From positions 68,601 to 132,600 of the IMG/VR virus record IMGVR_UViG_3300038309_000252: DNA of 64,000 nucleotides. One strand, 5' to 3'. Source of the DNA: a virus. How positions within the stretch are numbered: the stretch's first letter is position 1; every line of letters starts with the position of its first letter. Under the pieces are notes generated by a model. That model had not been told where the DNA came from and ran no database searches. It saw nothing but the letters and a program-made list of their open reading frames with translations. A program made the translations under genes and the position numbers. Positions 36,403 through 53,113 of the stretch are shown in pieces.

Positions 36403-36435
36403 GTATAATCGCATTGCATTCATGGTATGCCTGGT

Positions 36436-36966: not shown

Positions 36967-37152
36967 TTAACGGGTTTCCTTCAGGATTTCGCGCGCATAT
37001 GCCTTTGCTGTTGCTTCCGTATATCCGCGTGTTGAATGCATGAGGTAGACCTTAATTTCATTCCTGATGTCGGACATCGAAAGTGTTGGATTCACCGACA
37101 CCATCATATCCATATAGTTTCTGGCATCTTGCTTAATAGTCTTCTTCATCAC
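36967..37152 (-). CDS. small early protein (family with 43223..43429)
   Basis: Promoter + SD AAGGAG; TAKAYA motif. Confidence 0.7.
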   Translation of the reverse strand: MMKKTIKQDARNYMDMMVSVNPTLSMSDIRNEIKVYLMHSTRGYTEATAKAYAREILKETR

Positions 37153-37216
37153 TACGCTCCTTCACCAAACAATGACTACATCATACCCTAAGCAGTTCAC
37201 ACGTGTCAACTGTTCA

Positions 37217-37681
37217 TTAATTGAGCGCTAACCTGAATGACAACAGGTACACGTCTTCAAACCTGTCTTTGATATTTTGAATCCTTTCCATACATGTATC
37301 CAATGAATGATCACCATAAACCAAACGCTCAATCAACCACCAATCGTCTATTGGCATGCGCTGCAATTGCAAACCATGCATGCCATTAGCAAGAAACAGC
37401 TTGGCAGACTTGGAAGCAACATAAGATGCCACCAGCAGCATTGCTTCATCCTTGGATTCACAAGAATCCTTAAGAACCTCGACATGAGGATCATTAAGCA
37501 GCGATATCCAATGCAGGTCAACAACATCAGGAGCGATATTGTTAAATATCAAGCTACCATCAGTTTCTGTTTTTTCGATCCAAGACTTGAATCGATTAGC
37601 AGCATTGACGTCAAAGGATTCATCCTCACATTTCAAGGATTCAATCATTCCAAAAACAGTCATAGATGTAGATGTAGTCAT
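37217..37681 (-). CDS. hypothetical early protein
   Basis: SD AGGA; orientation matches the arm. Confidence 0.7.
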   Translation of the reverse strand: MTTSTSMTVFGMIESLKCEDESFDVNAANRFKSWIEKTETDGSLIFNNIAPDVVDLHWISLLNDPHVEVLKDSCESKDEAMLLVASYVASKSAKLFLANGMHGLQLQRMPIDDWWLIERLVYGDHSLDTCMERIQNIKDRFEDVYLLSFRLALN

Positions 37682-37749
37682 TTTTGGTTCCTATTGATAC
37701 TGATCGCAAAGAACTTGAACGTATGATTCTACTGGATTAACCAGTATCT

Positions 37750-37920
37750 TCAACTCCTATTCATTGCGAAATGGTAGTTCTCCTCGTCCTCCCTAAGGAT
37801 TTCACGAAGATCATCATCATCTTCTTCATCCAGAAGACAAAGATCGATATCCAATCCCTTCCAGGATTTAAAATCCTCTGAACTAAGAATGTCAAAATCA
37901 TCCGGACCAAAATCGTTCAT
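37750..37920 (-). CDS. 56-aa highly acidic protein (not in ORF track)
   Basis: MNDFGPDDFD...DEEDDDDLREILREDEEN; SD AGGTG, own promoter. Confidence 0.7.
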   Translation of the reverse strand: MNDFGPDDFDILSSEDFKSWKGLDIDLCLLDEEDDDDLREILREDEENYHFAMNRS

Positions 37921-38267
37921 AGTCACCTACCTTGTCACCTACCTTGCGATTCCTGTGGTGCATAGTAGCAAAGGCATTCTAGGATGTCAACTATCCACTA
38001 TTGCTTCATGTGGCATCATGGATCCTAGGTACCTTAGGCACACCATCGTTTTTGATTTTGACCTATCATATAGGCAATGGCATTGGTTGTCAACTATGTA
38101 GTTTTTATACATGGCATTGCATTGCCTTGCCAGGAAGACTAAGGACTATGGATTCAGGGATGCCTCTGTGACGCGCTACGCTGCCCTACGTTGAACGATC
38201 TCGAGCAAGAAGCTACCCTACTAGCTCTCATATCCAAAGTTCATAGGTACCCATGAATGCACCATTT

Positions 38268-38469
38268 CTACATAGTTGACAATGGGTTAACACCATGGCA
38301 AGCTATACCAATGATGGCAACACTGCCATTGAGGAATGAAGGCAATTGCCATGTATAAAACCTACATAGTTGACAATGGGTTAACACCATGGCAAGCTAT
38401 ACCAATGATGGCAACACTGCCATTGAGGAATGAAGGCAATTGCCATGTATAAAACCTACATAGTTGACA
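38268..38469 (+). repeat. 94-bp tandem repeat, each unit carrying a promoter-like TTGACA
   Basis: Exact units at 38268 and 38362; partial third at 38456. Confidence 0.95.
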
Positions 38470-38611
38470 CAGCGAAAGACTGTGATATGCTAGACCTCGA
38501 TTGACAATTGAGGAATGGACCAGGCAGGATGCTATTCAGGTTTGTGTATCATTCGTGCATAGTTGACAATGTAGTTGAGGTGTTGCATAATACACCCATG
38601 ATGAATGAAAT

Positions 38612-38695
38612 GCCCTGGTGGTGGAATGGTAGACACTGGAGACTTAAAATCTCCTGCCAGTAGGCGTGTCGGTTCGAATCCGACCCAGGGTACCA
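38612..38695 (+). tRNA. tRNA-Leu(UAA)
   Basis: Acceptor GCCCTGG/CCAGGGT + ACCA, anticodon stem GGAGA/TCTCC with loop CTTAAAA, long variable arm, GGTTCGAATCC. Confidence 0.95.
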
Positions 38696-38729
38696 TTTTC
38701 TTTTAATATGGTGATGTGAGGTATATATT

Positions 38730-39425
38730 ATGAATGAATATGAATGCGTTACTTTCATTTCAGATACCCTAGTTAAGGCAGCTGCTTCTCAAGCAGTTTC
38801 TGACGCTAATGGTAAGATTGAAAAGTGTGCATATGATATTTTCATTACGGACAAGATGATTGAGAATATCAATGCTATGGCATGTAATAATGATTCATCA
38901 TCTGATGAAGATCATACTGCCATAAACACGCTTCTTTCTGATATCTGGGCATCGAGATTTAGCGTCTTTGATGGTTTGTATAAGTCTGCGTATGAGTTTT
39001 CATATAATAAAGAAGTAGACCGTTTGTCTAAGGCAGGAATTGATCCTGTACCTTATGGTGATGTTATCAAAGGCAATGCTTTTGTGATGCCTTCTCCAAG
39101 GAAGAAGACCAGCAAAAAGAAGAGTCTTGCTGAGACTAGCAAAGCTATAGAACCTGTTGACAATTCAGAAGATCCTATTGATGATGAACCAGAAGTAAAG
39201 ACTCCAAAGACTCCAATTCCTGCAAAAAAGGTTAAGGAAAAGGTAGTTAAGGAAAAGGCACCAAAAGTAAGGAATGGCACATTGCTTGAGAAAGCTCTTG
39301 AAATCTACAAGCAAGAAGTTAATCCGACTAGAAAGGTTATGATGCATATGTTTATTGACAAGCTGGGTATGAAACCCAACAGTGCATCTACATACTTCTA
39401 CTTCTGTAAGGATCGCGCTGGTTAA
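38730..39425 (+). CDS. early protein with Lys-rich linker and C-terminal HTH-like domain
   Basis: SD GAGGT; C-terminus ALEIYK...GMKPNSASTYFYFCKDRAG matches 35791..36273. Confidence 0.8.
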   Translation: MNEYECVTFISDTLVKAAASQAVSDANGKIEKCAYDIFITDKMIENINAMACNNDSSSDEDHTAINTLLSDIWASRFSVFDGLYKSAYEFSYNKEVDRLSKAGIDPVPYGDVIKGNAFVMPSPRKKTSKKKSLAETSKAIEPVDNSEDPIDDEPEVKTPKTPIPAKKVKEKVVKEKAPKVRNGTLLEKALEIYKQEVNPTRKVMMHMFIDKLGMKPNSASTYFYFCKDRAG

Positions 39426-39447
39426 CCAGCGCGATCCATTTGGCAAA

Positions 39448-39732
39448 ATGGAGACCTTTATGGGATGCTGCTTTCATATATCTGTAAACTATTTGAATGC
39501 ATCAATCAAGAATGGAAACCCTAATGGTTTATGGTTTCAGAAATTGGATGATGGACGATACAAAATTATCCATTCTGGTTCATTGTGGGTTTGGCAACAA
39601 TTGTTTGCTCCTGGAAGGATAGTGAACAGGAATCAACTTGAATTCTTCATAACTGAATATGAAGGTGATGCATACATTGTTGACAGGTTCAATGAAATGC
39701 CAGCTTCTGGAAAGAAGCTAGCTTCTGGATGA
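39448..39732 (+). CDS. hypothetical protein
   Basis: In-frame ATGs at 39448 and 39460 (GGAG SD before the second). Confidence 0.55.
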   Translation: METFMGCCFHISVNYLNASIKNGNPNGLWFQKLDDGRYKIIHSGSLWVWQQLFAPGRIVNRNQLEFFITEYEGDAYIVDRFNEMPASGKKLASG

Positions 39733-39976
39733 TGGTGGGAACATGAACAGAAAATCTAATAGTCTTGTAATGAAATGGATCATTTGTGAACACTTGCCAC
39801 AGGAACAGTCTTGTGGCAATGCGTCCAGCAATGAGGCAACACGCAGCGTTAAGTCTAGACCAGCTGTCAAATGTGCTTGGGTGTTGCAAAAGGACATAGT
39901 TGACAAGCAATCCAAAATTGGGTAACATGGTACCCATAGTGAAATAAGGTTTTAGGCAATGACAAGGAGTGAATTA

Positions 39977-40372
39977 ATGGAGCAACCTAGCTTTATAGTT
40001 GAAGTTCGTGATTTGATGCTTAAAGATGATCCCAATTTCCAAACTTTGGTTTCTAATGGCATCATGACTGTGGAAAACGTTATTGAATTGACAGAGACAA
40101 TCGCAACATATACTGCTATGGCAATGTTTGATTCAGATACTCCATATAAAAATATCAATGATATTCCTCCTGAAGATGCAAAGCTGATTTCAAATTATTG
40201 TGGTTCTGCCAACATTCCCAATTGGGAAGTTGTTGATTTTCCAAAGACGGAAACTGGTGCCATCGATAGCATATTTACGCTTGAATATGCTATCAAGCAG
40301 GTATACCTCGAGAAGTTCTTTAAAACCATTAATGAAATGGAAGATCAGATTGCAGAGTTTGGAGGAGCATAA
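39977..40372 (+). CDS. hypothetical early protein, paralog A
   Basis: SD AAGGAG; highly similar to 41088..41462. Confidence 0.8.
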   Translation: MEQPSFIVEVRDLMLKDDPNFQTLVSNGIMTVENVIELTETIATYTAMAMFDSDTPYKNINDIPPEDAKLISNYCGSANIPNWEVVDFPKTETGAIDSIFTLEYAIKQVYLEKFFKTINEMEDQIAEFGGA

Positions 40373-40379
40373 TTTGACC

Positions 40380-40415
40380 AGTGTCAATGGATACCTCGAG
40401 GTATCCATTGACACT
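40380..40415. repeat. 36-bp perfect palindrome
   Basis: AGTGTCAATGGATACCTCGAGGTATCCATTGACACT. Confidence 0.9.
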
Positions 40416-40504
40416 TTTCCTTCAGACTCATTTCTACATAGTTGACAATTAAACCACCATGCGTTATCATGTAACCATGATGAAGGTTGGTTGACAAAGG
40501 AGCT

Positions 40505-40678
40505 ATGATGATCAACGAGACGATCCTGTGGGAAGAAGCTAAGGAAGTTGAATCCTGGTTTGATAACCTTTCTGAGGAGGCAATCCAGGCAATGGAGGAC
40601 GATGTAGAATGGCAAGACTCTTGGGAGACTCTCCTCTTGGAGGATCCCAAGGCAATTGATGCCTATGTGAGCGCATGA
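40505..40678 (+). CDS. 57-aa highly acidic protein
   Basis: SD AAGGAG; 17 D/E versus 2 K, four Trp. Confidence 0.75.
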   Translation: MMINETILWEEAKEVESWFDNLSEEAIQAMEDDVEWQDSWETLLLEDPKAIDAYVSA

Positions 40679-41004
40679 AAACTCTACTTGGCATTAATCC
40701 AATCAGGTTACAAACATACTTTAATGATGACATTTCCAAGCATCCATTGGAGGTCATCATGTACCTTTCTGCAGCATACTCAAAGGTATTAGCGTACTCA
40801 GACATTGATAGCGGCAATCATGAAGGTATGCCAACAAATGCATCTGATCAGCTTCTTGATCTGGTCAAAACACATGCAATGATTTTAATGCCCAGTATAT
40901 CTATTGATAACATAGAGACTGTTATGGATCAGTGTAGAATTAACATTGACCATATATATTGTGGAATGTATCATTCAATTTTACATACATTAAAATCAGT
41001 CTAA
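40675..41004 (+). CDS. hypothetical protein
   Basis: ATGA overlap with the upstream gene. Confidence 0.65.
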   Translation: MKTLLGINPIRLQTYFNDDISKHPLEVIMYLSAAYSKVLAYSDIDSGNHEGMPTNASDQLLDLVKTHAMILMPSISIDNIETVMDQCRINIDHIYCGMYHSILHTLKSV

Positions 41005-41087
41005 ATCATTCTTGCATAGTTGACAATTAAACCACCATGCCTTATCATGTAACCATGATGAAGAAGGCAATGTCAAGGAGTGAATCA

Positions 41088-41462
41088 ATGGCACTAAGTT
41101 TGCCCAGCAATGTTGTTAAAATCCGAGATTTGATGCTCAAGAAGGAACCCAATTTTAAAAGATTGGTATCTAATGGCATCAAAACTATGAATAACGTTAT
41201 TGAATTGACAGAGGTAATTGCTGCATGTACCGCTACAGCAATGTTTACTACAGATACCCCATATAAAAATATCAAGGATATTCCTCGTGAAGATGTAAAG
41301 CTGATTTTGAAATATACCGGTTCGAACTACATTCCCAATTGGGGAGTTGTTGATTTTCCAAAAACGGAAAATGGTACCTATACTAGTATTGCATATGCTA
41401 TCAAGCAGGTATACCTCGAGAAGTTCTTTGAAACCATTAATGAAATGGAAGATCAGATTTAA
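41088..41462 (+). CDS. hypothetical early protein, paralog B
   Basis: SD AAGGAG; paralog of 39977..40372. Confidence 0.8.
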   Translation: MALSLPSNVVKIRDLMLKKEPNFKRLVSNGIKTMNNVIELTEVIAACTATAMFTTDTPYKNIKDIPREDVKLILKYTGSNYIPNWGVVDFPKTENGTYTSIAYAIKQVYLEKFFETINEMEDQI

Positions 41463-41579
41463 ATCTGTTAAAAAATAATATATATAGTATATGCTTGACC
41501 AAGACCAAGAACTACCTGCAGTCTGAATCGTTCTTGCATAGTTGACAATCACACCTTCATGTCCTATAATATAACCATC

Positions 41580-41720
41580 ATGAAGAAGAGCACGACACGG
41601 ATTAAGGTTAGGAACATGGACGCTGTCTATATGTTTAAGCGGAAGTCTGGTCCTCATGGGAAAACCACCAAGGCAAACCGCAGGGAACACAAGGTTAACC
41701 TGGTGAAGAATTGGGATTGA
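41580..41720 (+). CDS. 46-aa basic protein, probably near-leaderless (not in ORF track)
   Basis: ATG 9 nt after TATAAT; MKKSTTRIKVRN...RKSGPHGKTTKANRREHK. Confidence 0.65.
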   Translation: MKKSTTRIKVRNMDAVYMFKRKSGPHGKTTKANRREHKVNLVKNWD

Positions 41721-41761
41721 TCAGGGAATCCCTGATCAATCCTTAAGCATTGTGAGAGAAC

Positions 41762-42031
41762 ATGTACTACGTGATCAATACATTTCAGAAATCTAAACCA
41801 TCATTTGTCTATCGTGAAGACATTTATGTCGATAATCACTCGCTAGCTTACATCCTTCATTACTTTGAAGAACTTTGGCACACCAAGTTCAGGGATGAGA
41901 CGCGTCCATATGATGTCGAGGACAAGCGTCACCGATATGGCGATGCTCAATCACAAATCGAGCTCTGGATTTGGGAGATCAACGAGTCTGAATACCAAAC
42001 GTATAAAAGTCAAGGTGTAATTGAAATCTAG
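41762..42031 (+). CDS. hypothetical protein
   Basis: ORF in the early arm. Confidence 0.65.
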   Translation: MYYVINTFQKSKPSFVYREDIYVDNHSLAYILHYFEELWHTKFRDETRPYDVEDKRHRYGDAQSQIELWIWEINESEYQTYKSQGVIEI

Positions 42032-42070
42032 TCGTAGATTTCAATATTAAAGGATGCACAGGAGTACAAA

Positions 42071-42415
42071 ATGGCAAGTGTTGTCGGTGATTTTTTTGTC
42101 GAGAAGATGGCATTTGATTCTTCTTCTCAGAAGATTGAAATGACAGCTTTCCTGATGGAAAACAGCATGGAAGCGATTGTACTTGCCAGTTTGATTGAAT
42201 CCTTTAAATCTGAATTGATGCTGGCAAATAGAATAACAATGGATGGTGAAATCGTGGATAATCCCGGTGATCCATTTACTGATTATGAAGTACAAATACT
42301 CCAACACCTAGATGGCGCAATCCGGTATTATTCTACCCTGGCACAGTTGGAAGAATGGGATAGGTATTTGACCACAATTCATTCAGTTTTGGACGGGATT
42401 TTGAATTATGCGTGA
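42071..42415 (+). CDS. acidic hypothetical protein
   Basis: SD AGGAG. Confidence 0.7.
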   Translation: MASVVGDFFVEKMAFDSSSQKIEMTAFLMENSMEAIVLASLIESFKSELMLANRITMDGEIVDNPGDPFTDYEVQILQHLDGAIRYYSTLAQLEEWDRYLTTIHSVLDGILNYA

Positions 42416-42452
42416 TTCGTGAACAGTTAACCTTACATGGCATGGAATTTGC

Positions 42453-42773
42453 ATGGAGAATCAGAAAATGGAAACTGTACAAGGTGTAGTTGAACCAGAT
42501 TCAAAAGACGTTAATCAATGTATGAACATGGCAAAGGAATTGGCGCTTATTGCATTGCTAGACGAATTAGTTAATGAAGAGAAGCGTGTAATCGATCAAT
42601 TAAAGAAAATTGTCGAGCAATCGATTAAAGAAAACCACCAGGAAAGACCAATGAATGAGTTTGTGCCAAAGACAGACTTAGGTAGAAAATTGCTTGAACT
42701 ACGTCAAGCGTATATTCACGATGGTGGCGAATTAATCAACGCTGATCAATTAGATATGATGGATTGGAGATAG
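42453..42773 (+). CDS. hypothetical protein
   Basis: ORF in the early arm; C-terminal PKTDLGRKLLELR. Confidence 0.65.
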   Translation: MENQKMETVQGVVEPDSKDVNQCMNMAKELALIALLDELVNEEKRVIDQLKKIVEQSIKENHQERPMNEFVPKTDLGRKLLELRQAYIHDGGELINADQLDMMDWR

Positions 42774-42776
42774 TTA

Positions 42777-43148
42777 ATGGTTACAATGGTTAATCCTGTA
42801 GAATCCTTTGTGCGTGATCACTATGTGATCAGTAATGCAACGATGGAAAAGTTGAAGTTCTTTAATGAACAGTATCAAATTGCGTTAAACGGGATTAGTG
42901 ATCTATGTGAAAGTTGGCGCAACAAGATGTATGAATCGCTTAATGACCTGCTTGGGTATAAAACAGCTTTGCTAAGCACTAGCGAAAGTGAAACATTCAT
43001 TAATGAATACTACATGCGATTCAAATCAGAATACCCTGAAATTGATAACGCAATGGTGCTCATGCTCGAGCAAATTGAACTGATTATTGATGATACACTG
43101 GCATTGATGATGGATTCTGAACCAATTCTGAAATGGACTTTGAATTAA
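42777..43148 (+). CDS. hypothetical protein
   Basis: SD GGAG. Confidence 0.65.
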   Translation: MVTMVNPVESFVRDHYVISNATMEKLKFFNEQYQIALNGISDLCESWRNKMYESLNDLLGYKTALLSTSESETFINEYYMRFKSEYPEIDNAMVLMLEQIELIIDDTLALMMDSEPILKWTLN

Positions 43149-43222
43149 ACTGCATCATTCTTGCATAGTTGACAACATGAAATAACCTTGGTATCATACA
43201 TACCTAGTGAATAAAGGAGTGT

Positions 43223-43429
43223 GTGATGAAATACAACAACTATCGTGCCGCTCAACAATATTGGTCCATGGTTGCCACAAATAATCCAGATTGGTCCATC
43301 AGCACGATTCAACATGAAGTGTATAATTTCATGTTGATTAGTCTGACTAAATCAACTGCCAAGGTATATGCTTCAAAGTTGAAGAAAGAAATGATGTTCA
43401 AGACCTTTGACAAGAAGGATCCTGCTTAA
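43223..43429 (+). CDS. small early protein (family with 36967..37152)
   Basis: Promoter + SD AAGGAG; TAKVYA motif. Confidence 0.7.
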   Translation: MMKYNNYRAAQQYWSMVATNNPDWSISTIQHEVYNFMLISLTKSTAKVYASKLKKEMMFKTFDKKDPA

Positions 43430-43435
43430 TTTCAT

Positions 43436-43461
43436 GCTGGTGTAGCTCAGTTGGTAGAGCA
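43436..43461 (+). pseudogene. 5' fragment of a tRNA gene
   Basis: GCTGGTGTAGCTCAGTTGGTAGAGCA is an acceptor strand plus complete D-arm; no anticodon or T arm follows. Confidence 0.7.
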
Positions 43462-43465
43462 AATC

Positions 43466-43681
43466 ATGAAAATTAATTACTTCAAAACGTTACTTGAGGC
43501 AGCAAATGGAAATCCCAGTTCTCAATTTGAAATGGGTTTAATATATGAACATGGAATTGGAGTTGACAAAAGCACCATTGTTGCTGTAAAATGGTTCAAA
43601 CTAGCTGAAGATCAAGGCAATGTTAATGCCAAAATTAAATTGAATTATTTGTATTTCAATCGTGATATTAAGCACCAATAG
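43466..43681 (+). CDS. Sel1-like repeat protein
   Basis: AANGNPSSQFEMGLIYEHGIGVDKS...AVKWFKLAEDQGNVNA. Confidence 0.85.
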   Translation: MKINYFKTLLEAANGNPSSQFEMGLIYEHGIGVDKSTIVAVKWFKLAEDQGNVNAKIKLNYLYFNRDIKHQ

Positions 43682-43684
43682 GAA

Positions 43685-45901
43685 ATGATAATGAATAGTG
43701 TGAATACCACAGATGTTATTGCCAATCTTCTTTCTAATGAAAAATTAATTATACTGCGTAAAAATACATCTACAGCATCATTTAACATCGAAACCCGTAT
43801 TTTAACTTTGCCTATTTGGCATGATATCCCAGATTATGTCGAACAGCTTTTAATTCTTCATGAAGTTGGTCATGCATTGTATACAACTTCTGAATTATCA
43901 GATGCATTAGGTTCTGTCCTACCATTTCCTGAAGGACAGGTTTATCTAAATGTTGTAGAAGACGCTAGAATTGAAAAATTAATTAAAAGAAGATATCCTG
44001 GTGCTATTAAGGTAATCAATAAAGGTTATGATTATCTTAATAAGTCTAATTTCTTTAATATTGAAGGAAAGGATTTAGATTTATTGCATACTATTGATAA
44101 ACTTAATATCTTTTTTAAGATTGGCATTGAAAGCAGTTTCACTCCTAAAGAACAGAATTTCATTGATCGTATTTCTAACGCAGAAACGGTCCAAGATGCA
44201 ATTGATATATCAATTGATTTATTTAATTACTGTAAGGATCAGAAGGATTCCTTTAGAAAAAAGGATAAAGGAAATGATGAGTCTGAATCTGATAATGTCC
44301 AATCAGATTATACTGATCAATCAGCTGATCAATCAGAAATTCAAATCTCTTCAGCTGAAGATGATTCGATGGATTCTGATTCATCTGATAAGTGTGGCAA
44401 TCAAAATAATAAAGATAATGATTGTCAACCAGATGAATCAAATTGTACTTCTTCTGGATCAGGAGATGAAAATGGTTCAAACCAAATTCAACAACCATTT
44501 ACCCAAGCTTCAGTAGATTCTAATCTTTCAAATATTATAGAAAATAAAGGTTTATTTATTAGCTTTATTCCTCCTCTATATGATTATATTATTCCATACA
44601 AAGAAATATATGAAGAGTCTTTATCAGAAGCTCTAAAATCTAGAAATGATCAAAAGGATTTTAATTTGCAAGAACATATTGAAAATGATCATGCATTTAA
44701 TAAGTTCAAAACTGATTTGAATAATGATATTGCCTTTATGATCAAAGAATTTGAAATGAGAAAAGCTGCAGCTGCGCATAAAAGACAGCAAATTTCTAAA
44801 ACTGGGCAATTGGATTCCAAGAAACTTTGGGGATATAAAATCAAAGAGGATTTATTCAAGGCATATACAACAACAAAAGACGGCAAAAATCATGGGATGG
44901 TGTTTCTTCTTGACTGGTCTTCTTCCATGAGACCAATTAATTCTACAATTGATCAATTGATCAGTTTGGTTGTTTTTTGCCGTAAAATGCAAATACCATT
45001 TAAAGTTCTTGCTTTTAGCAATGAGGAATCATTAGTTAAATCTTTATTTTCATCTCAAGTAGAGCAAATTGCAGATAAAAGATTTGAGCTAAAGCAAAAT
45101 CTAATTGAAAAAGGAATTGATGTAATATCGGATTTAAATGATAAACCATTTTATTTGCTTGAGTTTTTTTCAAGCGATATGTCTCAATATGAATTTAATA
45201 CGGCAATTTATCTTTTGAAAAGAGAAGTTGTTGTTAGAAGGTATAAATTACATAGCACACCATTGAATAATGCATTACTTACCATGTATGATTATATTGC
45301 GACATTTCTTGATAAATCAAAAACTGATATTCTGACATTTGTTGTATTAACAGATGGGCAAGGTGAACCTTTGCCGCAGGAAATTGTTACTTCAAAAAAT
45401 ATATCATTCGGTATGTCGCACCATGATTTTTTCAAGATTGGTGATAAATACTATAGATGGCATAGCTATGCAGCTGAGCAAACAAGAATTATTTTATCTG
45501 CTATCAAAAGCAAATATCATTGTAACGTTATTGGATTTCATTTAATAGCTCCGCATGGTTATGCTATACGAGGAAACATTAGTGTTTTATTTCCAAGTCA
45601 TGAACTACGATGCAAATGGTTAAAAGATAATGCTGAAAGAATATCTTTGCTTGTATATGATAGTATTAAGAAAAAGAATAATTCACAAGGTTATTATTTA
45701 ATTAATGATGTTGGGTATGATAAATTATTTATCATCTCAAAAGATTTCAATATAGACGATTATGAAAAGGAATTAAATATCTTAGAAAAAGAAGCAAGCA
45801 CATCAAGTATTGTTAAAAAGTTTAATACCTATATGTCAGGCAAGAAAACATCAAGAAAATTGCTAACAGCAATTGTTGATAATATTTCAAAGCAATTATA
45901 G
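43685..45901 (+). CDS. CobT-like protein: metallopeptidase-like N-terminus + vWA domain
   Basis: HEVGH, NVVEDARIE, acidic linker, MIDAS DWSSS, TPL, LTDG. Confidence 0.85.
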   Translation: MIMNSVNTTDVIANLLSNEKLIILRKNTSTASFNIETRILTLPIWHDIPDYVEQLLILHEVGHALYTTSELSDALGSVLPFPEGQVYLNVVEDARIEKLIKRRYPGAIKVINKGYDYLNKSNFFNIEGKDLDLLHTIDKLNIFFKIGIESSFTPKEQNFIDRISNAETVQDAIDISIDLFNYCKDQKDSFRKKDKGNDESESDNVQSDYTDQSADQSEIQISSAEDDSMDSDSSDKCGNQNNKDNDCQPDESNCTSSGSGDENGSNQIQQPFTQASVDSNLSNIIENKGLFISFIPPLYDYIIPYKEIYEESLSEALKSRNDQKDFNLQEHIENDHAFNKFKTDLNNDIAFMIKEFEMRKAAAAHKRQQISKTGQLDSKKLWGYKIKEDLFKAYTTTKDGKNHGMVFLLDWSSSMRPINSTIDQLISLVVFCRKMQIPFKVLAFSNEESLVKSLFSSQVEQIADKRFELKQNLIEKGIDVISDLNDKPFYLLEFFSSDMSQYEFNTAIYLLKREVVVRRYKLHSTPLNNALLTMYDYIATFLDKSKTDILTFVVLTDGQGEPLPQEIVTSKNISFGMSHHDFFKIGDKYYRWHSYAAEQTRIILSAIKSKYHCNVIGFHLIAPHGYAIRGNISVLFPSHELRCKWLKDNAERISLLVYDSIKKKNNSQGYYLINDVGYDKLFIISKDFNIDDYEKELNILEKEASTSSIVKKFNTYMSGKKTSRKLLTAIVDNISKQL

Positions 45902-45916
45902 GTACATGGTGATACG

Positions 45917-46396
45917 ATGGAATCCAATCATAAAGAGAATGGGTTTACGTTAATTGAGCTAATGATTGTTGTATCAATTATCGGTATTCTTGCTACGATT
46001 GCAATTCCATCGTATCAAAAGTATGTCATACGTGCTAAATTAGCAACAGCATTTGTGTTTCTTGGATCCTTTAAAACAGATATTGTGGAATATTACACAA
46101 TGTATGGTAGATTTCCACAACAAAATGATCCACAATTAAAAGATATATTTCCCATTAATAATATATCATCAAAATATCTTAAATCACTAGAGTATGTATA
46201 TAAAGATGATGATACTGCATTAATGATAGCAACTATTAATCCAAGTATATTTCCAAGTTATGAACACTTAACAAATCCTCAATTAGTCTTTCAAGCTACA
46301 GGCAACATGTCAAATGTTCAATTCAAATGCTATAGGTATAAAAACTCTATACCTCCTGCTTATTTGCCTTCAATTTGTCGTGAGTCTATTCAATAA
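45917..46396 (+). CDS. pilA: type IVa major pilin-like protein
   Basis: Prepilin leader ...KENG|[27 protein letters not shown]; C-terminal disulfide loop C...YLPSIC. Confidence 0.93.
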
Positions 46397-46454
46397 TTGA
46401 ATATTGACATTCAAGCTGATTTGAGGCATAATATTATCATGCAATGGAGGAAGA

Positions 46455-46658
46455 ATGAAATTTAAATATGCTAATGAAATGTCTGATTTTGAAATTGCCC
46501 AGCATACATGGGAAGTATTTCAACGTGATTATCCATATGATTCCATAGTGTTGCTCCGTGATTTCACGGAGGAAACACTCAAGACCTCATTTAACATGAG
46601 TAGCTCAAAAGCAAAGAGGTATGCAAATGAAGTTTATAAATTGTATTTTGGAAGCTAA
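46455..46658 (+). CDS. small early protein
   Basis: Own promoter, SD GGAGG; KAKRYA motif. Confidence 0.7.
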   Translation: MKFKYANEMSDFEIAQHTWEVFQRDYPYDSIVLLRDFTEETLKTSFNMSSSKAKRYANEVYKLYFGS

Positions 46659-46771
46659 ATAATAGGGTATTGCGTAATTAATATCTAAATAATCTCCACT
46701 TCTATGTGGTTTATGCCTCAATTTATTTCAAATAGATTGAGGCATTTTTTTCTAATAAAAAGAGGTCTGTT

Positions 46772-46978
46772 ATGTTAATTATTGATGATCCTAATAGTGT
46801 TCTGGTTTCTATTATTGTCGACAAAACCCAGCAAGAAGAAAAGTATGCAATTGCATATTCTGGCGCAGATTGGGAGCACGAATTTAAATTTGGTGACATT
46901 GTTTCAGCTAATGAAATTGACCAATTGCTAGCTAAGGAAGGAACTGTGTGGGTTAATTCTCCTATTGTGTATATTTGA
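46772..46978 (+). CDS. hypothetical protein, tandem copy 1
   Basis: SD GAGGT; near-identical to 47049..47285. Confidence 0.7.
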   Translation: MLIIDDPNSVLVSIIVDKTQQEEKYAIAYSGADWEHEFKFGDIVSANEIDQLLAKEGTVWVNSPIVYI

Positions 46979-47048
46979 TTATCTTGCAAGATGTTTACAA
47001 AGATATAGGTTAAGACAGGTGAGGTCTGTTATGAAAAAGAGGTCTGTT

Positions 47049-47285
47049 ATGTTAATTATTGAAGATCCTAATAGTGTTCTTATTTCTATTCTTGTTGACA
47101 AAACCAAGCAAGAAGAAAAGTATGCAATTGCATATTCTGGAGCAGATTGGAAGGATGATTTTAAATTTGGTGATATTATTTCATCTAATGACATTGACCA
47201 ATTGCTTAGCAATTGGTCTGACCAATTGCTAGCTAAGGAAGGAACTGTGTTGGGTAATTCCCCTTCCCCTATTGTATATATTTGA
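47049..47285 (+). CDS. hypothetical protein, tandem copy 2
   Basis: Same RBS context as copy 1; 24-nt internal insertion. Confidence 0.7.
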   Translation: MLIIEDPNSVLISILVDKTKQEEKYAIAYSGADWKDDFKFGDIISSNDIDQLLSNWSDQLLAKEGTVLGNSPSPIVYI

Positions 47286-47348
47286 AGCAATTGACAGTCA
47301 TCTCCATTTGATCTATACTATGTTCACCAATTGAGAAGAGGATTTAAC

Positions 47349-48563
47349 ATGGCAAAGCAAAATATTGTAGCAGTTATCTTTAATAAGGTATGTGAAAAGT
47401 ATCCTGATATTGCTTCAACTAGAACTGCAACTTCTAACCAACTGAAAAGTGTTTGTTCTTATATTCATCAATCTATGAATCAATATAAGGTAAGTAGAGG
47501 TGTATATAGATTCCCAGAAGATTTAATTTATACACCTTCTGTTGAGCACAATGATTCAATTGAACAGGATACCACACATTCACAATGCTCTACAATGGAA
47601 ATGCACAATGCATTGTCTTCAGTAACTTCCATTTCATCTATGAAAACATTTGATGAATCCGCAATGTTAATTCCCAAAATTGATCCAAATTATGTTGCTT
47701 TTGGCAATCACACTATGGTTGAAAAGATTATTAAATCTAATATTTTTTACCCAGTTTATATTACAGGACCAACTGGAAATGGCAAGTCAACAATGGTGGA
47801 ACAAGTTTGTGCTAAACTTAAACGACCATTGATTAGAATTAACCTAAATGCCATGACCGATGAAGATCAATTGATTGGAACCAAAACTCTTGTGGATGGA
47901 AATATCCAAGTAGTTGAAGGACCAATTCTAAAAGCAATGAAAAATGGTTATATATTGCTTCTTGATGAAATTGATGTATCAAATAGCAATACCATTCTTT
48001 GTATCCAAAATATCATGGAAGGAAAACCATATTATTTCAAGTTAAACAATACTATTATCCATCCTGCAAAAGGATTCAATGTCTTTGCAACTGCCAATAC
48101 TAAAGGAAAAGGTTCTGACGATGGAAGGTATATTGGAACAAATATATTGAATGAAGCTTTTCTAGAAAGATTTGGAATTGTTATTGAGCAAGATTATCCA
48201 TCTGCAGCTATTGAAACCCAAATTATAAGGAAGGCAATGGTATTGCATGATTGCTATGATGATAATGAGCAATTACTTGCCCTATTGATTAAATGGGTCT
48301 CTGCAATTCGGAAAACCTATAACAATGGTGGCATAGAAGAAACTATTACGACACGCAGATTGCTTCATATTGTAAAAGCATATTCTATTTTTAAGAATAT
48401 CAAAAAGTCTATTGAATTGTGTTGTAATCGCTTTGATGCCACAACTAAAGCTGGATTTATTGAGTTGTTTAATAATCTATCACCAGAAGATAATGAAGAT
48501 ACTAATCAGAATTCTGAATCCGATACTTCTGAAGTGAAAACTAATTTAGATAATAACGTTTAA
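47349..48563 (+). CDS. MoxR/CobS-like AAA+ ATPase
   Basis: GPTGNGKS, LLLDEID, ATANTKGKG, NEAFLERF, TRRL. Confidence 0.92.
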   Translation: MAKQNIVAVIFNKVCEKYPDIASTRTATSNQLKSVCSYIHQSMNQYKVSRGVYRFPEDLIYTPSVEHNDSIEQDTTHSQCSTMEMHNALSSVTSISSMKTFDESAMLIPKIDPNYVAFGNHTMVEKIIKSNIFYPVYITGPTGNGKSTMVEQVCAKLKRPLIRINLNAMTDEDQLIGTKTLVDGNIQVVEGPILKAMKNGYILLLDEIDVSNSNTILCIQNIMEGKPYYFKLNNTIIHPAKGFNVFATANTKGKGSDDGRYIGTNILNEAFLERFGIVIEQDYPSAAIETQIIRKAMVLHDCYDDNEQLLALLIKWVSAIRKTYNNGGIEETITTRRLLHIVKAYSIFKNIKKSIELCCNRFDATTKAGFIELFNNLSPEDNEDTNQNSESDTSEVKTNLDNNV

Positions 48564-48576
48564 GATTGGAGTAACT

Positions 48577-49422
48577 ATGTTTAAGGTATCTGAAATATTT
48601 TATTCCTTGCAAGGTGAAGGTTTATATACTGGTACTCCTAGTATCTTTCTAAGACTATATGGATGTAATTTTAGGTGTGCTGGATTTGGAATGCCTAAAG
48701 GTCAATTATCTACAGAAGCAGATGAAATTGCCAAGCATGCTTTAGAATATACTGATATTTCACAAGTACCTCTAGTCAAGACTGGTTGTGATTCCTTTGT
48801 TTCTTGGCATCCTGCATTCAAGCATTTGTCATCTAAAATGACAAATGATGAGATTTGTTCTAAGATTCAAACTTTGTTGCCATATCATCAATGGAATTAT
48901 GAACATCTCATATTTACTGGTGGAGAACCATTATTGATTGGTCTTCAAAAGAGACTAGTTGATTTTCTATTACATGAGTTTAATGGTGGTCTTAATTATA
49001 TTACATTTGAAACCAATGGTACTCAAAGACTAACACAAGAGTTTATGGATTTCCTTTATGATTGGTCTGATCTACGTCTATCAGATGCAATTACTTTTAG
49101 CGTATCTCCAAAACTTTCAAATAGTGGTGAGTCTAAAGAGCAATCAATTCAACCAGAAGTTATAGCTTTGTACCAACAAGTTGGTCAAACTTATCTGAAG
49201 TTTGTAATTGGAACAGAAGAAGATATGAATGAATGTTTGGATGTAATTGAATTGTATAGAGACTTTGGTTTTGAAGGAGATGTGTATGTAATGCCAGTTG
49301 GTGGAGAAGAAACTATGTATAATCTAAATAAATGTGGTGTTGCTAAGCTAGCTTTGAAGCATGGTCTAAAATATAGTGATAGACTCCAAATATCATTATT
49401 CAAAAATAATTGGGGAACATAA
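48577..49422 (+). CDS. queE: 7-carboxy-7-deazaguanine synthase (radical SAM)
   Basis: EIFYSLQGEG, FLRLYGCNFRC...GCDS, TGGEPL, ETNG, SPKL. Confidence 0.93.
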   Translation: MFKVSEIFYSLQGEGLYTGTPSIFLRLYGCNFRCAGFGMPKGQLSTEADEIAKHALEYTDISQVPLVKTGCDSFVSWHPAFKHLSSKMTNDEICSKIQTLLPYHQWNYEHLIFTGGEPLLIGLQKRLVDFLLHEFNGGLNYITFETNGTQRLTQEFMDFLYDWSDLRLSDAITFSVSPKLSNSGESKEQSIQPEVIALYQQVGQTYLKFVIGTEEDMNECLDVIELYRDFGFEGDVYVMPVGGEETMYNLNKCGVAKLALKHGLKYSDRLQISLFKNNWGT

Positions 49423-49424
49423 AA

Positions 49425-50033
49425 ATGCAAAAATGGTCAATAGATAAGAAGTTTTCATTCTGCTATGGACACAGGGTTTGGTCTCAAGAATTAAAACATA
49501 CATTATGTGAATCACATGATGCAAGACCAAAATGTAGACATTTACATGGGCATGAAGCACATGTAAATGTTTATCTTGAAAGTGATGTTTTAGAAAACGG
49601 AATGGTAACAGATTTTAATCATTTAGGATGGTTAAAAGACTTCTTCAATCAAACCATTGACCACAAATTCATCTTTGATATTAATGATCCAATTATTGAT
49701 TCATTGTTAATTCCTACTTACAGTATCGTTACAAAATCTCAAAGATTAAGTTATAATACAATATTACCAGACAACTTTAGTGATACATTTATATGCAATA
49801 CTTTAGATTTATCCATTGCAAAAAAGAATAAACAAATTAATAGTCCAGAATATGATGTCCTTGAAGGAATTATATTAGTTGATTTTGTTCCAACATCAGA
49901 AAATCTATCCAAATGGATTTATGATATCGTAAATGATAAAATGAAAAGTATTGGTGTCAAAACAACAAAAGTTGAATGGCAAGAAACACCTAATTCCAGA
50001 GCTTCATATTCACATGAAAATAGTTGTACATAA
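49425..50033 (+). CDS. queD: 6-carboxytetrahydropterin synthase
   Basis: FCYGHR, CRHLHGH, GMVTDF, DHKF, PTSENL, ET. Confidence 0.93.
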   Translation: MQKWSIDKKFSFCYGHRVWSQELKHTLCESHDARPKCRHLHGHEAHVNVYLESDVLENGMVTDFNHLGWLKDFFNQTIDHKFIFDINDPIIDSLLIPTYSIVTKSQRLSYNTILPDNFSDTFICNTLDLSIAKKNKQINSPEYDVLEGIILVDFVPTSENLSKWIYDIVNDKMKSIGVKTTKVEWQETPNSRASYSHENSCT

Positions 50034-50707
50034 TCTTGAAAGAAAAATCTGATCCTAAATTAGGTGAATTAATTCATGAGTTATTATTAAGAAAAAATAT
50101 TGAAAATCCAACTATAAAAAGTGATATATCACCAGAATTAAAAATTAAACAACTAGAAACTAATTTTACAAATATTTTATCTGATCTTGGACTAGATTTA
50201 ACAAATGATTCATTGTCAGATACATCTTTACGTGTTGCAAAAATGTTTGTTAATGAATTATTTTGGGGACTTGATTATACCAAGTTTCCAAAATGCACTA
50301 CTGTAAAAAATACAATAGATTATAAATCATCTTTTGTCATGGAGCGAAATATCGCTGTTAGATCTACTTGTGAACATCATCTGGTGATTATTGATGGTAG
50401 TGCTTCTCTTGCATATAAACCATATAATAAAACAATTGGACTATCTAAATTAAATAGAATTGTTGAGTTTTTTGCAAAAAGACCACAAATTCAAGAAAGA
50501 TTAACAGAACAAATAGCTGAAACATTATCATATGTTACAGATTCACCTGATGTAGCAGTTTTCATAGATGCTGTGCATTATTGTGTAAAAGCTAGAGGCA
50601 TTCAAGATTCACAATCATCAACAATTACTTTTGCAACTAGAGGTGTGTTTAGTGATTTTAATTCTTCACTAAGGAAAGAATTCCTAGATTTTGCCTCATT
50701 AAAATAA
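50024..50707 (+). CDS. folE: GTP cyclohydrolase I (start codon uncertain, TTG)
   Basis: CEHH, GLSKLNR, RPQIQERLT, HYCVKARG. Confidence 0.95.
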   Translation: MYIILKEKSDPKLGELIHELLLRKNIENPTIKSDISPELKIKQLETNFTNILSDLGLDLTNDSLSDTSLRVAKMFVNELFWGLDYTKFPKCTTVKNTIDYKSSFVMERNIAVRSTCEHHLVIIDGSASLAYKPYNKTIGLSKLNRIVEFFAKRPQIQERLTEQIAETLSYVTDSPDVAVFIDAVHYCVKARGIQDSQSSTITFATRGVFSDFNSSLRKEFLDFASLK

Positions 50708-50716: not shown

Positions 50717-53113
50717 TCAGATATATCTTTTTTGTACATATGATTGATAGCTTGATTCTTGATTTCTTGCGTCTTTTGGTACCACAACAGTTTGATTACT
50801 ATTATTTACATTAGTAGTTGGTGCATTAACTACTGTTGGTGCATTAACAACTGCTGTTTGCCTTTTTTCTGCCTCCATGTTTGCTGCTGATTGGTTATAG
50901 ACATTATTTGCACTAGTTAATGGATTTTGTGGTGGAATACTAATATTTACATTAGGTGATGCTGGAGTTGGAATAATTATTTGTGGTACTGGTAATTGTT
51001 TATATTGTGGAACTACTTGTGGTTGAACATTAACAGAAGGTTGTTGAATTAATGGAGCATTAGTTTCAGGTAAAACTTGTTGATTTGTAGTTGCTTCTAC
51101 ATTAAAACTTTTTTGATTACTTGCATTAATTACTGGTGTACTTACTTGAGATGTATTTGTATCAATATTTGTTGTATTTTGTTGTGTATTGTTCTGATTA
51201 AGTTTTACTGGTGTAATTTTAGTTGGTTGTAAAGATACATCCTTTGGATTTACAGGATTAAACTTAACAGGAGTACTCTTTGGAGTTTCTTCCTTGATTT
51301 GAACTTTAGGTTTTAATGATTCAGTTGGTGGTAATACTGGTGTGATTTTTGGTGGTGGAATAATAACAAGTTGTGATTTTTCTGGGTTTTTATTATCCGG
51401 AACTTTATTAATTGGAACTGCTGGTTCTTCTTTTGGTTTTACAAGTTCTTTTGGTGCTGTTTCAGGTGTCAAAGGAACTAATTTGTGATTTTTATCAACA
51501 ACCATTGGTTGTTGCAATTGATCTACAGGTTTCTGATTAGCTGGAACTTCAGTATCTTTACCTTGTATTAATTCTGCTCCTTGTTCTGCTATATATCCTC
51601 CAGCAGCTTTTCCTGCTTTACCTGTAAAATAACCTAATCCAGCTCCAACTAGTCCACCAACAATTGTTCCAACACCTGGAAAAATCATTGTACCAATAGC
51701 TGCTCCAGCAGCACCAGCTGCTAAAGTACCACCAACCATTCCAACACTTTCACCAACAGCTCGTGCTTTTTGTGTATTTGCCTGATGTTCTGTAATTTGC
51801 CCTGCGGCAAGTTGTTGATTAGCTGCGCTTATACCTTGATATCCTTCTAAAACTCCTTCACCAACAAGTAATGCTGTGCCAGCAACTCCTGCTGCTTTTG
51901 CACCAATTCCAAGAACACGAAGAGCTCTTGCTCCTTTTGATGCAGTTGATAATCCTTCTACAGCAGTTCCTGTTGCTCTTCCTAATCCTTTTGATGCACC
52001 AAATCCTTTACCAGCAATTTGTGTTCCAGCTTCTAATGCAGATGCACCATATGAGGATTTTCCAGCAATAGAGGCAGCTCTTGAAAGACCAGTACCAGCT
52101 CTTCCTGTTCCTCCAGGAATTATTTTAGGGGGTATACCTGGTCGACCAGGTATTGGTCTTGGTATGTTTGGTGGAACACTTGGTGGTACTCTTGGTGGAA
52201 CACTTGGTGGTACTCTTGGTGGAACACTTGGTGGTACTCTTGGTGGTACTTTATGAGCTCCAGTTCTAGGTAGTGGAGTCTCTCCTGGGATAGATGTTCT
52301 TGGTTTTTTAAATCTATCAAAAAGCGATCTTCTTGTTTTTGGACCGCCTCTTTTTTGTTGCCTCTGTAGTCTTTTTTGTTGCCTCTGTAGTCTTTTTTGT
52401 TGCCTCTGTTGTCTTCTTTGCTGACGAGTTTGTCTTGGTTTTCTTGGTGTTCTTCTTGGAAGATTAAATGGAGAACTTGTATCATCATTTTCAGTGTCAG
52501 GGGATTTTTTACTAATTAATTTTAATAGATCAATTATGATATCAGTATTTGCATATATTTTTTTAAGAACAACTGTTTGATCATTAACGAGTTTATTCGC
52601 TTCATTCAATAATTCTTCAGAATCAGCTTTTCTAGCTACTACTTTTCTTTTTCCGAATTGATTATATAATGTTAAATCAGTTTTCTTAGCAACTACTAAT
52701 GATTTTTCTGTATTTTGTTGAATATTTGATAATTTGGTTAATACACTTTGTTTAGAAGCTAATGAAGAAACCCTGTTATCAACATTTGATATGCTAGGTT
52801 TATAAGGTATTAATTTATTTGCAATTATTTTTGCAATATTTTCTAAATCATTATATTGTTTTAAAGTATTGGTATTTTCTGGTGGTTGAGTACCAGGTTG
52901 TAAAGACCTTATATATTCTTTAGAATAAGCATCTAATAAAACATTTTTATTATTTCTTATAGGATTGATTCTTTGCCCAGTATCAACAGTATTGAGTATT
53001 GACTGAGTTTTAAATATAGCAATCAATTCCTTAAATAAAGGAACTAATTCATCAAATGCATTTGACAGACTATTTGATTGCTGCTTTAAAAGTACTGGTG
53101 ATAAATATGACAT
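50717..53113 (-). CDS. gp29-like baseplate hub / tape-measure protein
   Basis: Follows gp26/gp51; Gly/Ala-rich hydrophobic segment; C-terminal VVNAPT..NN pattern. Confidence 0.6.
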   Translation of the reverse strand: MSYLSPVLLKQQSNSLSNAFDELVPLFKELIAIFKTQSILNTVDTGQRINPIRNNKNVLLDAYSKEYIRSLQPGTQPPENTNTLKQYNDLENIAKIIANKLIPYKPSISNVDNRVSSLASKQSVLTKLSNIQQNTEKSLVVAKKTDLTLYNQFGKRKVVARKADSEELLNEANKLVNDQTVVLKKIYANTDIIIDLLKLISKKSPDTENDDTSSPFNLPRRTPRKPRQTRQQRRQQRQQKRLQRQQKRLQRQQKRGGPKTRRSLFDRFKKPRTSIPGETPLPRTGAHKVPPRVPPSVPPRVPPSVPPRVPPSVPPNIPRPIPGRPGIPPKIIPGGTGRAGTGLSRAASIAGKSSYGASALEAGTQIAGKGFGASKGLGRATGTAVEGLSTASKGARALRVLGIGAKAAGVAGTALLVGEGVLEGYQGISAANQQLAAGQITEHQANTQKARAVGESVGMVGGTLAAGAAGAAIGTMIFPGVGTIVGGLVGAGLGYFTGKAGKAAGGYIAEQGAELIQGKDTEVPANQKPVDQLQQPMVVDKNHKLVPLTPETAPKELVKPKEEPAVPINKVPDNKNPEKSQLVIIPPPKITPVLPPTESLKPKVQIKEETPKSTPVKFNPVNPKDVSLQPTKITPVKLNQNNTQQNTTNIDTNTSQVSTPVINASNQKSFNVEATTNQQVLPETNAPLIQQPSVNVQPQVVPQYKQLPVPQIIIPTPASPNVNISIPPQNPLTSANNVYNQSAANMEAEKRQTAVVNAPTVVNAPTTNVNNSNQTVVVPKDARNQESSYQSYVQKRYI
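52168..52410 (-). repeat. coding tandem repeats (PPRV/PPSV 12-bp units; QRQQKRL 21-bp units)
   Basis: Visible repeats in DNA and protein. Confidence 0.85.

Follow-up and report, generated by a model that had tools for sequence, protein, structure and literature searches.

A full-length type IVa major-type prepilin gene in an apparently virulent T4-like phage from marine sediment

Introduction

Type IV pili are major phage receptors, and they drive attachment, twitching and DNA uptake. Phage proteins that act on these pili include Aqs1 of DMS3 (PMC13436744) and a Pf phage protein (PMC8764522), which reportedly alter them and prevent superinfection. Both are small inhibitors of pilus machine components, unlike the protein considered here, which is a version of the pilus subunit. 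We describe a gene for a type IVa major-type prepilin in a 64,000-nucleotide stretch of viral DNA (the window), bases 68601-132600 of the 132.6-kb virus record IMGVR_UViG_3300038309_000252.

The closest described system is that of Sztanko et al. (Cell Rep 2026; PMC12952977). Passages of their paper report that a FimU protein encoded by prophages (P-FimU) becomes part of Pseudomonas pili and keeps out phages that bind the tip. Their list of PilA-like proteins (P-PilA) covers Xylella prophages as well as non-temperate phages of four groups. For these PilA-like forms the authors propose either incorporation or inhibition of assembly, raising inhibition for the short ones, and they liken the role of the proteins to exclusion by virulent phages such as T4. 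A further system comes from archaea: according to passages of a second paper, the haloarchaeal provirus SNJ2 makes its own pili through the host's secretion machinery (PMC12426801). Our search for literature on phage-encoded and viral pilins yielded as relevant only these two studies (the former as paper and preprint), and no paper was found that joins pelagimyophages and pili. A preliminary description of this stretch, made from its letters, stated that no characterised system of the kind was known; P-FimU and the SNJ2 pili contradict that statement, and phage-borne pilin genes as such are already known.

How does the present gene compare? As with P-FimU and P-PilA, a phage genome encodes a structural homologue from the type IV pilus that would use the host's machine, and replacement of a receptor has been proposed for them too. 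P-FimU, however, is a minor pilin of the pilus tip, comes from temperate Pseudomonas phages and has had its action tested, while the P-PilA cases are given as a list in the passages concerned. The protein described here is a full-length major-type pilin of a T4-like phage, with a unique head domain and inverted charges, and is known from genes alone. SNJ2 likewise combines virus-encoded type IV pilins with host machinery, but it is archaeal and temperate, and its pili serve as the receptor for another virus, which makes for mutualism and not for a block. What is new here is the connection to kindred T4-like phages whose pilins lie at other loci, together with the unique head and the charge inversion.

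Results and discussion

The predicted product is a complete type IVa major-type prepilin

Because no alternative in-frame start codon precedes Gly9, the leader of the prepilin is fixed. With cleavage predicted before F10 of the precursor, the mature pilin has F1, E5, G14, P22, Y24 and Y27; the roles of F1-E5, G14 and P22 in pilins are set out in a part of Kolappan et al. (PMC5059446). The marks of the superfamily are present: a hydrophilic leader ending in glycine, a hydrophobic stretch, F1 and E5. A net positive leader charge, typical of the superfamily though not strictly defining, is lacking. In an alignment of 80 pilins the columns G9 to E14, G23 and P31 (precursor numbering) are invariant, and both cysteine columns are conserved at 90% or above; 15 residues separate C138 from C154, against a median of 16 in homologues (range 13-28). 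The phage pilin has the majority residue at 35 of the 43 columns with at least 75% conservation, including G-1, F1, E5, G14, P22 and both cysteines.

Profile searches place the protein among the pilins. It matches Pfam N_methyl (PF07963) with 38.4 bits against a cut-off of 21.2, and TIGR02532, the only NCBIfam model above its cut-off, with 35.2 bits against 16.3. Pfam Pilin (PF00114) is a near miss, since the score of 21.6 bits (E value 4.5e-4) falls 0.4 bit short of the gathering score of 22; the alignment runs from residue 39 to 155 and over positions 2-108 of the 108 in the profile. The NCBIfam models for GspG, ComGC and PpdD stay far below their cut-offs. GspG, the type II secretion pseudopilin, was rejected as an identity: TIGR01710 gives 33.6 bits against 88.85, and the N-terminal residues 9-71 alone match.

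Comparison with known structures agrees. A phmmer search of the PDB sequences finds 15 distinct chains at E <= 0.001, the best being Neisseria gonorrhoeae PilE (1ay2; E 1.1e-16, residues 10-104), and a second, weak PilE stretch falls on the C-terminal LPS-x-CR motif. An AlphaFold2 model built from 80 homologues (predicted local distance difference test, pLDDT, 89.9; predicted template-modelling score 0.77) has a helix at 12-63 and four strands, the 'lollipop' arrangement of a long alpha1 helix on a four-stranded sheet. Foldseek against the PDB gives nine matches at E <= 0.001 with template-modelling scores of 0.53-0.64. All nine are type IVa major pilins, namely PilE of two Neisseria species, PAK pilin and Dichelobacter FimA, with Neisseria PilE the best.

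On the strength of the family, PDB and fold matches and of the 35 conserved columns, the gene product is predicted to be an intact, full-length type IVa major-type prepilin. The preliminary description had read the 159-residue open reading frame (ORF) in the same way, as complete, with a short leader, a G|F cleavage site, E5, a hydrophobic helix and a C-terminal cysteine pair, and the N_methyl, PilE and Foldseek matches bear it out. The predicted protein shares with Neisseria PilE (1ay2, 2hi2), PAK pilin (1oqw) and Dichelobacter FimA (3sok) the class III signal, F1, E5, G14 and P22, the long alpha1 helix on a four-stranded sheet and the C-terminal cysteine loop. It differs from them in being encoded by a phage without pil machinery genes, in having no sigma54-type promoter, in its leader charge of -1, in having T35 instead of glutamate, in falling 0.4 bit short of PF00114 and in having a best relative of only 44% identity.

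The gene resides in a phage genome that lacks pilus machinery

The 132.6-kb record has direct terminal repeats and a CheckV completeness estimate of 74%. It encodes a Gp23 capsid protein (Pfam E 1e-141) closest to that of Pelagibacter phage HTVC008M (66.9%) and next to that of Methylophilales phage Melnitz (66.4%). Upstream of the window are ORFs that we take, by eye from the ORF list, to resemble T4 gp46/gp47 and a gp55-like factor. A profile search of the genome gave no match to Phage_integrase. Judged from its genes, then, the phage is large, T4-like and apparently virulent, and the label 'lytic' in the preliminary description fits.

Pilins are typical of bacteria, and some 'phage' records look bacterial, such as the 240-kb 'Acinetobacter phage MD-2021a' pieces with ppdD and xcpT. 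Could the gene have entered the record as an assembly chimera or as bacterial contamination? The stretch occurs in four DNA runs (X1-X4) of one study, labelled 'marine sediment metagenome'. In each, a single contig with 0-1 differences and flat depth spans 43000 to 46770 or 46859 and so takes in the von Willebrand factor A-type (vWA) gene upstream, the pilin gene and the next ORF; to the right, the assembly graphs of all four runs break at a duplicated small ORF (46772-47285). The gene is AT-rich like the phage, as was first noticed: its content of G+C (GC) is 30.2%, and 19.4% at third codon positions (GC3), against 29.7% and 19.6% for the vWA gene, a genome GC of 30.4% and a median of 57.9% for 80 bacterial pilin loci. 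Conserved phage genes lie on both sides, and the identical protein is found on 15 recorded contigs, the longest of 132,889 bases. The bridging contigs and the phage-like GC and GC3 exclude chimerism, the first thing that the preliminary description had named as fatal to it, as far as contigs can show. A chimera or contaminant is thus hardly conceivable, and the pilin gene is almost certainly a genuine resident of the phage.

The pilin is the single N_methyl match in the whole record. The phage genome gave no match to Peptidase_A24 (prepilin peptidase) or PilX_N and none above the cut-off to T2SSE (pilus ATPase), so the earlier remark that no other pilus genes are present holds for the canonical ones. 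Since the phage lacks pilus machinery, any function would have to run through the prepilin peptidase and pilus machine of the host, and we consider it likely that the pilin acts through the host's pilus system.

Two other genes of the phage were noticed in this connection. About 11.5 kb before the window lies a gene for a 642-residue orphan protein (L002:6535-8463; genome 55135-57063) whose N-terminus resembles PilX, ComGG and ComZ, with a glycine followed by a hydrophobic helix and no E5. Its signals are weak ones alone: NCBIfam ComGG at E 0.015 and ESM Atlas matches at 0.92, these including 12 clusters named ComZ, with PilX_N in 18% of the members. The orphan has no Pfam or PHROG family, no PilX_N match and no homologue besides itself, and its single-sequence AlphaFold model (pLDDT 34) is unusable; that it may be a PilX-like protein is an unverified lead. 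The other gene (L002:1409-2713; genome 50009-51313) encodes a soluble chemoreceptor-like protein with PAS domains and an MCP domain (Pfam E 4e-19). No membrane segment was noted in it, and its best outside relative is 30% identical.

The head domain is unlike that of known pilins

Among 5.8 billion clustered proteins, 2993 match the pilin at E <= 0.001, the best of them other than itself at 40-41% identity. The closest relative found, a 173-residue pilin (P0261) encoded on a contig of 104,559 bases, is 44% identical over 154 residues. When the head domain alone (residues 65-159) was compared with 1.84 billion representatives in a full HMMER scan, it retrieved itself and one marginal match, again P0261 (E 1.1e-4). 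Identity to 79 aligned relatives has a median of 60% in the helix and of 24% in the head, where it reaches 31% at most. By these comparisons the predicted head is unlike that of any known pilin.

Other collections gave relatives of a more distant kind or none. A scan of a genome collection found 412 relatives among 600 stretches (best Halomonas, 34%). In metagenome contigs 26 of 84 stretches held relatives, all of them different pilins matching at the N-terminus only. Viral contigs searched with the pilin's own peptides yielded four pattern matches and no relative; 60 GenBank phage records match, none over 80% or more of the pilin; and the BFVD structures gave no match at E <= 0.001.

Phylogeny against bacterial pilins had been proposed as a way to identify the host, and in this it failed. 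In the trees the phage pilin falls among type IVa pilins of beta- and gammaproteobacteria, and no clade that would contain it has support. The neighbours closest to it in a tree of 131 pilins include 'uncultured Gammaproteobacteria', and the named members of near clusters are a Burkholderia sp. and Neisseria sicca, at 37-38% identity. In the Methylophilaceae 99 of 121 genomes have a match, the best 35% identical (E 6.7e-17); most of the genomes of about 1.3 Mb have none.

Kindred phages carry pilins at other sites

A search of IMG/VR with P0261 and a generic pilin peptide pattern returned 199 stretches, 163 of which encode pilin relatives, and 80 were kept. The phage pilin matches 79 of these 80 loci; 25 align over at least 135 residues, at no more than 37% identity. 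To find which of them come from kin, the 92 other long ORFs of the phage were searched against the 80 loci. Sixteen share other phage genes, and pilins could be read from 15 (L129, L136, L137, L142, L153, L155, L171, L172, L181-L183, L187, L192, L194 and L196). These pilins are type IVa-type and full-length, except for the short one of L192 (90 residues).

In seven of the loci (L129, L136, L137, L142, L182, L183 and L192) the pilin gene stands between homologues of the window's genes at 1944-2621 and 2637-3575. In L182 these flanks are a sliding clamp (phrog_223) and a clamp loader (phrog_168); in L181 only the left flank is seen. The pilin follows the clamp loader by about 3 kb in L153 and L172 and lies elsewhere in L187, L194 and L196. 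The clamp loaders of the kin are 56-63% identical to that of this phage (57-63% in the loci where the pilin stands between the two flanks); here the clamp and clamp-loader genes are neighbours and no pilin intervenes. The preliminary description had suggested that other phages be checked for pilins at this locus; pilins turned up in kindred IMG/VR contigs, at loci other than the present one.

The pilins of the kin fall into several clusters, 37-55% identical to each other and 30-44% to the pilin described here, from which they differ also in having a neutral or positive leader and in keeping E35 throughout. The ratio of nonsynonymous to synonymous substitution rates (dN/dS) is 0.12, 0.25, 0.27 and 0.73 in four close pairs, the last with few changes, all in the head; three of the four pairs are thus under purifying selection. 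The approximately unbiased test (p 0.118, tree without L192) does not reject a single origin of the 15 T4-like phage pilins, nor does it establish one. Because kindred pilins occur at several loci and their close pairs have these dN/dS values, pilin carriage is, on the evidence of the genomes, a recurrent and selected trait of this T4-like phage group, at no fewer than four different sites. The pilins of L129, L181-L183 and L192 share an extra C-terminal cysteine pair, the end of which reads much like VEVPC, and look like a phage-specific pilin subfamily.

Prepilins are also present in cyanophages. Six PHROG families match the N-terminus of the pilin, of which one (phrog_3433) is named 'pilin' and classed as moron/auxiliary, and 49 Synechococcus phage records (ACG-2014f, S-CAM7) hold a prepilin. 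Here too the carriers are virulent T4-like marine phages, but the cyanophage prepilin, 127 residues long in the one that was translated, has a long, strongly basic leader and an unrelated head, and it matches only residues 2-45 of the present pilin. According to passages of a preprint (10.1101/2025.09.20.677514), marine Synechococcus meets phages more often through its pili, and cyanophage S-CAM7 is a strong pilus binder. To link this binding with the S-CAM7 prepilin gene is our own step, which those passages do not take.

The charges around the helix are inverted

The pilin deviates from the majority at 8 of the 43 conserved columns, most strikingly at mature position 35, and at position 26 it has lysine where aspartate or asparagine is usual. 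Its leader carries a charge of -1, while 118 of 119 homologues are at 0 or above and 106 at +1 or above. The flank after the helix carries +3, while 223 of 226 pilins have +2 or less. This pattern is absent from 20 viral-contig pilins, all of which have a leader of at least 0, a flank of at most +1 and E35. The inversion may be a defect, an adaptation or neutral.

What the pilin might do

How would a phage profit from a major pilin? We suppose that the host would make the phage prepilin early in infection, that its prepilin peptidase would cleave the protein after Gly9 and that the mature pilin would enter the inner-membrane pool. From this the type IVa machine of the host would polymerise it, alongside host pilin or in its place, and the pili of the infected cell would display a foreign head domain. 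Pilus-binding phages, whether competitors or the phage's own progeny, would no longer adsorb productively. Such superinfection exclusion by receptor replacement is the outcome that we tentatively put first, because of the foreign head (at most 31% identity), the dependence on the host, the recurrence of pilins in the kin, the precedent of P-FimU and the pilus binding of S-CAM7, a cyanophage with a prepilin gene. If it is true, this form of exclusion extends from temperate Pseudomonas phages to abundant lytic phages, and if virulent T4-like aquatic phages routinely feed in a major pilin of their own, viruses partly set the make-up of natural pili. The head without recognisable relatives and the charge pattern against the positive-inside rule offer handles for experiments, and the kindred phages with pilins at different loci form a ready comparative data set.

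A number of points weigh against receptor replacement. Processing, incorporation and exclusion are all steps that we infer, and exclusion would presuppose that this phage or its competitors bind pili. Leader and flank differ by -4, whereas none of 119 homologues goes below -2, and threonine stands at mature position 35, where 199 of 226 compared pilins have glutamate and 10 have aspartate. In a passage of a review, prepilin topology is ascribed to the positive-inside rule (PMC10191384); because the charges here are inverted with respect to that rule, membrane insertion or processing could be inefficient, and that would suit a poison or decoy more than a subunit that assembles well. No variant of this pilin gene was found from which selection on this copy might be gauged. 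The promoter calls discussed below are consensus matches, and the sigma70-like matches in the region (22, against 32.2 in shuffled sequence) show no excess.

A poison would jam the peptidase or the assembly platform, and a decoy would make a PilS-type sensor register a full pilin pool, so that host pilin expression falls; in either case the infected cell would lose its pili, and pilus-dependent superinfection and DNA uptake would be blocked without incorporation. The inverted charges (-1 in the leader, +3 in the flank), the loss of E35 and the lysine at position 26 all point this way, the 20 viral-contig pilins being without these oddities. To go by the title of a 2016 paper by Kilmury and Burrows, pilins control their own expression through a contact with PilS within the membrane, and the conserved N-terminal helix, the part said to make the contact, is intact. 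Assembly inhibition has also been offered for short phage PilA forms (Sztanko et al., in passages of PMC12952977), but the same source includes forms of 60 residues, and the N-terminal helix alone would suffice for such a role, whereas the present pilin keeps a head that is confidently folded in the model, the cysteine pair and the LPS-x-CR-like motif. The decoy presupposes, moreover, a PilS-PilR system in the host. We place poisoning or deception on the unlikely side. Retention of all assembly hallmarks would suit an auxiliary gene that sustains or boosts the pili of an infected cell during the shutdown of host transcription, whether for particle attachment, for twitching or for DNA uptake as a source of nucleotides in a long latent period. 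The company of the gene agrees, since it lies among the classic auxiliary genes cobS-like, queE, queD and folE; so do the moron/auxiliary class of the PHROG 'pilin' family and the sediment label of the runs, and the chemoreceptor-like gene hints at an interest in host behaviour. A maintenance copy should resemble the host's pilin, however, and this head is unlike known ones (though the host pilin may be unsampled); the charge anomaly is unexpected in an efficient subunit, and no DNA-uptake genes were seen in the phage, where they were not searched for systematically. This role we hold to be unlikely.

A bolder proposal takes the inverted charges as an adaptation and not as a defect: they would bypass the sensing of the pilin pool or change the order of assembly. 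The pilin, the 642-residue orphan and the PAS-MCP receptor would then form a kit with which the phage takes over the host's pilus and taxis apparatus, specifying a pilus with its own tip and steering for DNA scavenging, for holding on to particles or for excluding rivals; we regard such a kit as distinctly unlikely. That the gene is a functionless passenger, taken from a host and not yet decayed, is suggested by the unrelated cargo that its slot holds in other phages, and no relative is close enough for selection on this copy to be measured. Its frame is intact, though, and its conserved residues are kept; a fully phage-like GC3 and a nearest relative of only 44% identity both suggest long residence without decay, and purifying selection acts on three of the four pairs of kindred pilins. 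A mere passenger is very improbable.

Setting and expression of the gene

The positions of the gene and its surroundings are collected in Table 1. The gap of 15 nucleotides to the vWA gene is as first described, the stop of that gene lying at 45899-45901 and the pilin start at 45917. Homologues of the vWA gene occur in IMG/VR contigs and in cyanophages, at 27-31% identity. In all three IMG/VR relatives (L004, L005 and L006; 27-30% identity) the cobS-like gene follows the vWA gene directly, and in both cyanophages inspected the gap is filled by unrelated cargo, one gene in S-RIM32 and five in P-TIM68. Because the borders are adjacent in the former and enclose other cargo in the latter, the pilin gene and three small ORFs are taken to occupy a variable cargo slot. 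PHROGs gave no match for the small ORFs at 46455-46655 and 46772-46975. Directly after the cobS-like gene come homologues of queE, queD and folE (48577-50707; PHROGs E 5e-50, 1e-33 and 6e-61), which suggest 7-deazaguanine modification of the phage DNA.

Table 1. Features of the pilin locus (window positions)
Feature	Position	Strand	Remarks
sigma70-like match TTGACA-17-TATCAT, TG-extended	43169..43197	+	11/12; most likely start of the pilin unit
sigma70-like match TTGACA-18-TAAAAT	43563..43592	+	11/12; inside Sel1-like ORF 43451-43681, use uncertain
vWA-type 'peptidase' gene (phrog_459), 738 aa	43685..45901	+	conserved left border; PHROGs E 8.2e-143, full length
Spacer, 15 nt, GGTGA Shine-Dalgarno-like	45902..45916	+	no promoter seen
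Prepilin gene	45917..46396	+	159 codons + stop; type IVa major-pilin-like; ORF, Pfam, PDB phmmer, AlphaFold2, Foldseek
Leader MESNHKENG	45917..45943	+	class III signal, predicted cleavage after Gly9, net charge -1
alpha1-N membrane helix, mature residues 1-22	45944..46009	+	F1, E5, G14, P22
C-terminal D-region, C138 to C154 codons	46328..46378	+	only two cysteines of the pilin
sigma70-like match TTGACA-17-CATAAT	46404..46432	+	11/12; 8 nt past the pilin stop; opens next small-gene unit
Small ORFs sharing the slot: 67 aa, then duplicated 68-aa + 106-aa pair	46455..47285	+	ORF list
sigma70-like match	47291	+	11/12
cobS-like AAA ATPase gene (phrog_249)	47331..48563	+	conserved right border; PHROGs E 2.6e-101, Pfam AAA_5

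No sigma70-like site at 11/12 and no sigma54-like site is found in the spacer before the pilin. Promoters of the sigma54 type serve many bacterial pilA genes; in the window the sigma54 pattern occurs 33 times against 32.4 expected, and never between 43632 and 48231. The sole terminator-like call on the plus strand from 43169 to 46396 is a weak stem within the vWA gene, at 44915. With sigma70-like sites upstream, no promoter in the spacer and no sigma54-type site, the pilin seems to close a phage transcription unit that begins some 2.7 kb upstream and is read by the main RNA polymerase of the host. From the same sigma70-like consensus matches we infer 'early' expression. The T4 late motif TATAAATA occurs less often than chance would give (5 times, with 14.5 expected) and never near the pilin gene, so it carries no information on the timing of the pilin. 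A stem-loop after the gene folds no better than shuffled sequence (z -0.08), and Rfam gave a single chance-level match over 42500-47500.

Other features of the window and its surroundings

The duplicated small ORF at 46772-47285, of 68 and 106 residues with mostly the same sequence, is the point at which the Logan contigs break in four of four runs. Runs X3 and X4 hold a 306-nt contig that joins 46960 to 48656, with 17 positions different; its depth is 168 in X3 and 522 in X4, where the phage itself has 72 and 17. The contig points to a relative of greater abundance in which the duplicated-type ORF stands beside queE and the cobS-like gene is missing. At 43433-43465, between two small ORFs, is a fragment like the 5' part of a tRNA, with D-arm-like letters, where ARAGORN calls no tRNA; unrelated contigs of the runs match these positions alone and then diverge from the window.

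On the minus strand, 50717-53113 encodes a protein of 798 residues that combines a basic stretch rich in QQRRQ with VPPRVPPS repeats and has a long, hydrophobic middle rich in glycine and alanine. Outside the window, at L002:3082-5502, two similar ORFs of 214 and 217 residues flank one of 369, an order that we presume, by eye, to be HsdS-/HsdM-/HsdS-like, as of a type I restriction-modification methylase. The region 36000-44000 has a GC of 36-41%, compared with about 29% elsewhere. It contains a tRNA-Leu(TAA) at 38612-38695, many small ORFs with strong sigma70-like sites, and the paralogous ORFs 39959-40372 and 41037-41462, which have long identical stretches in common.

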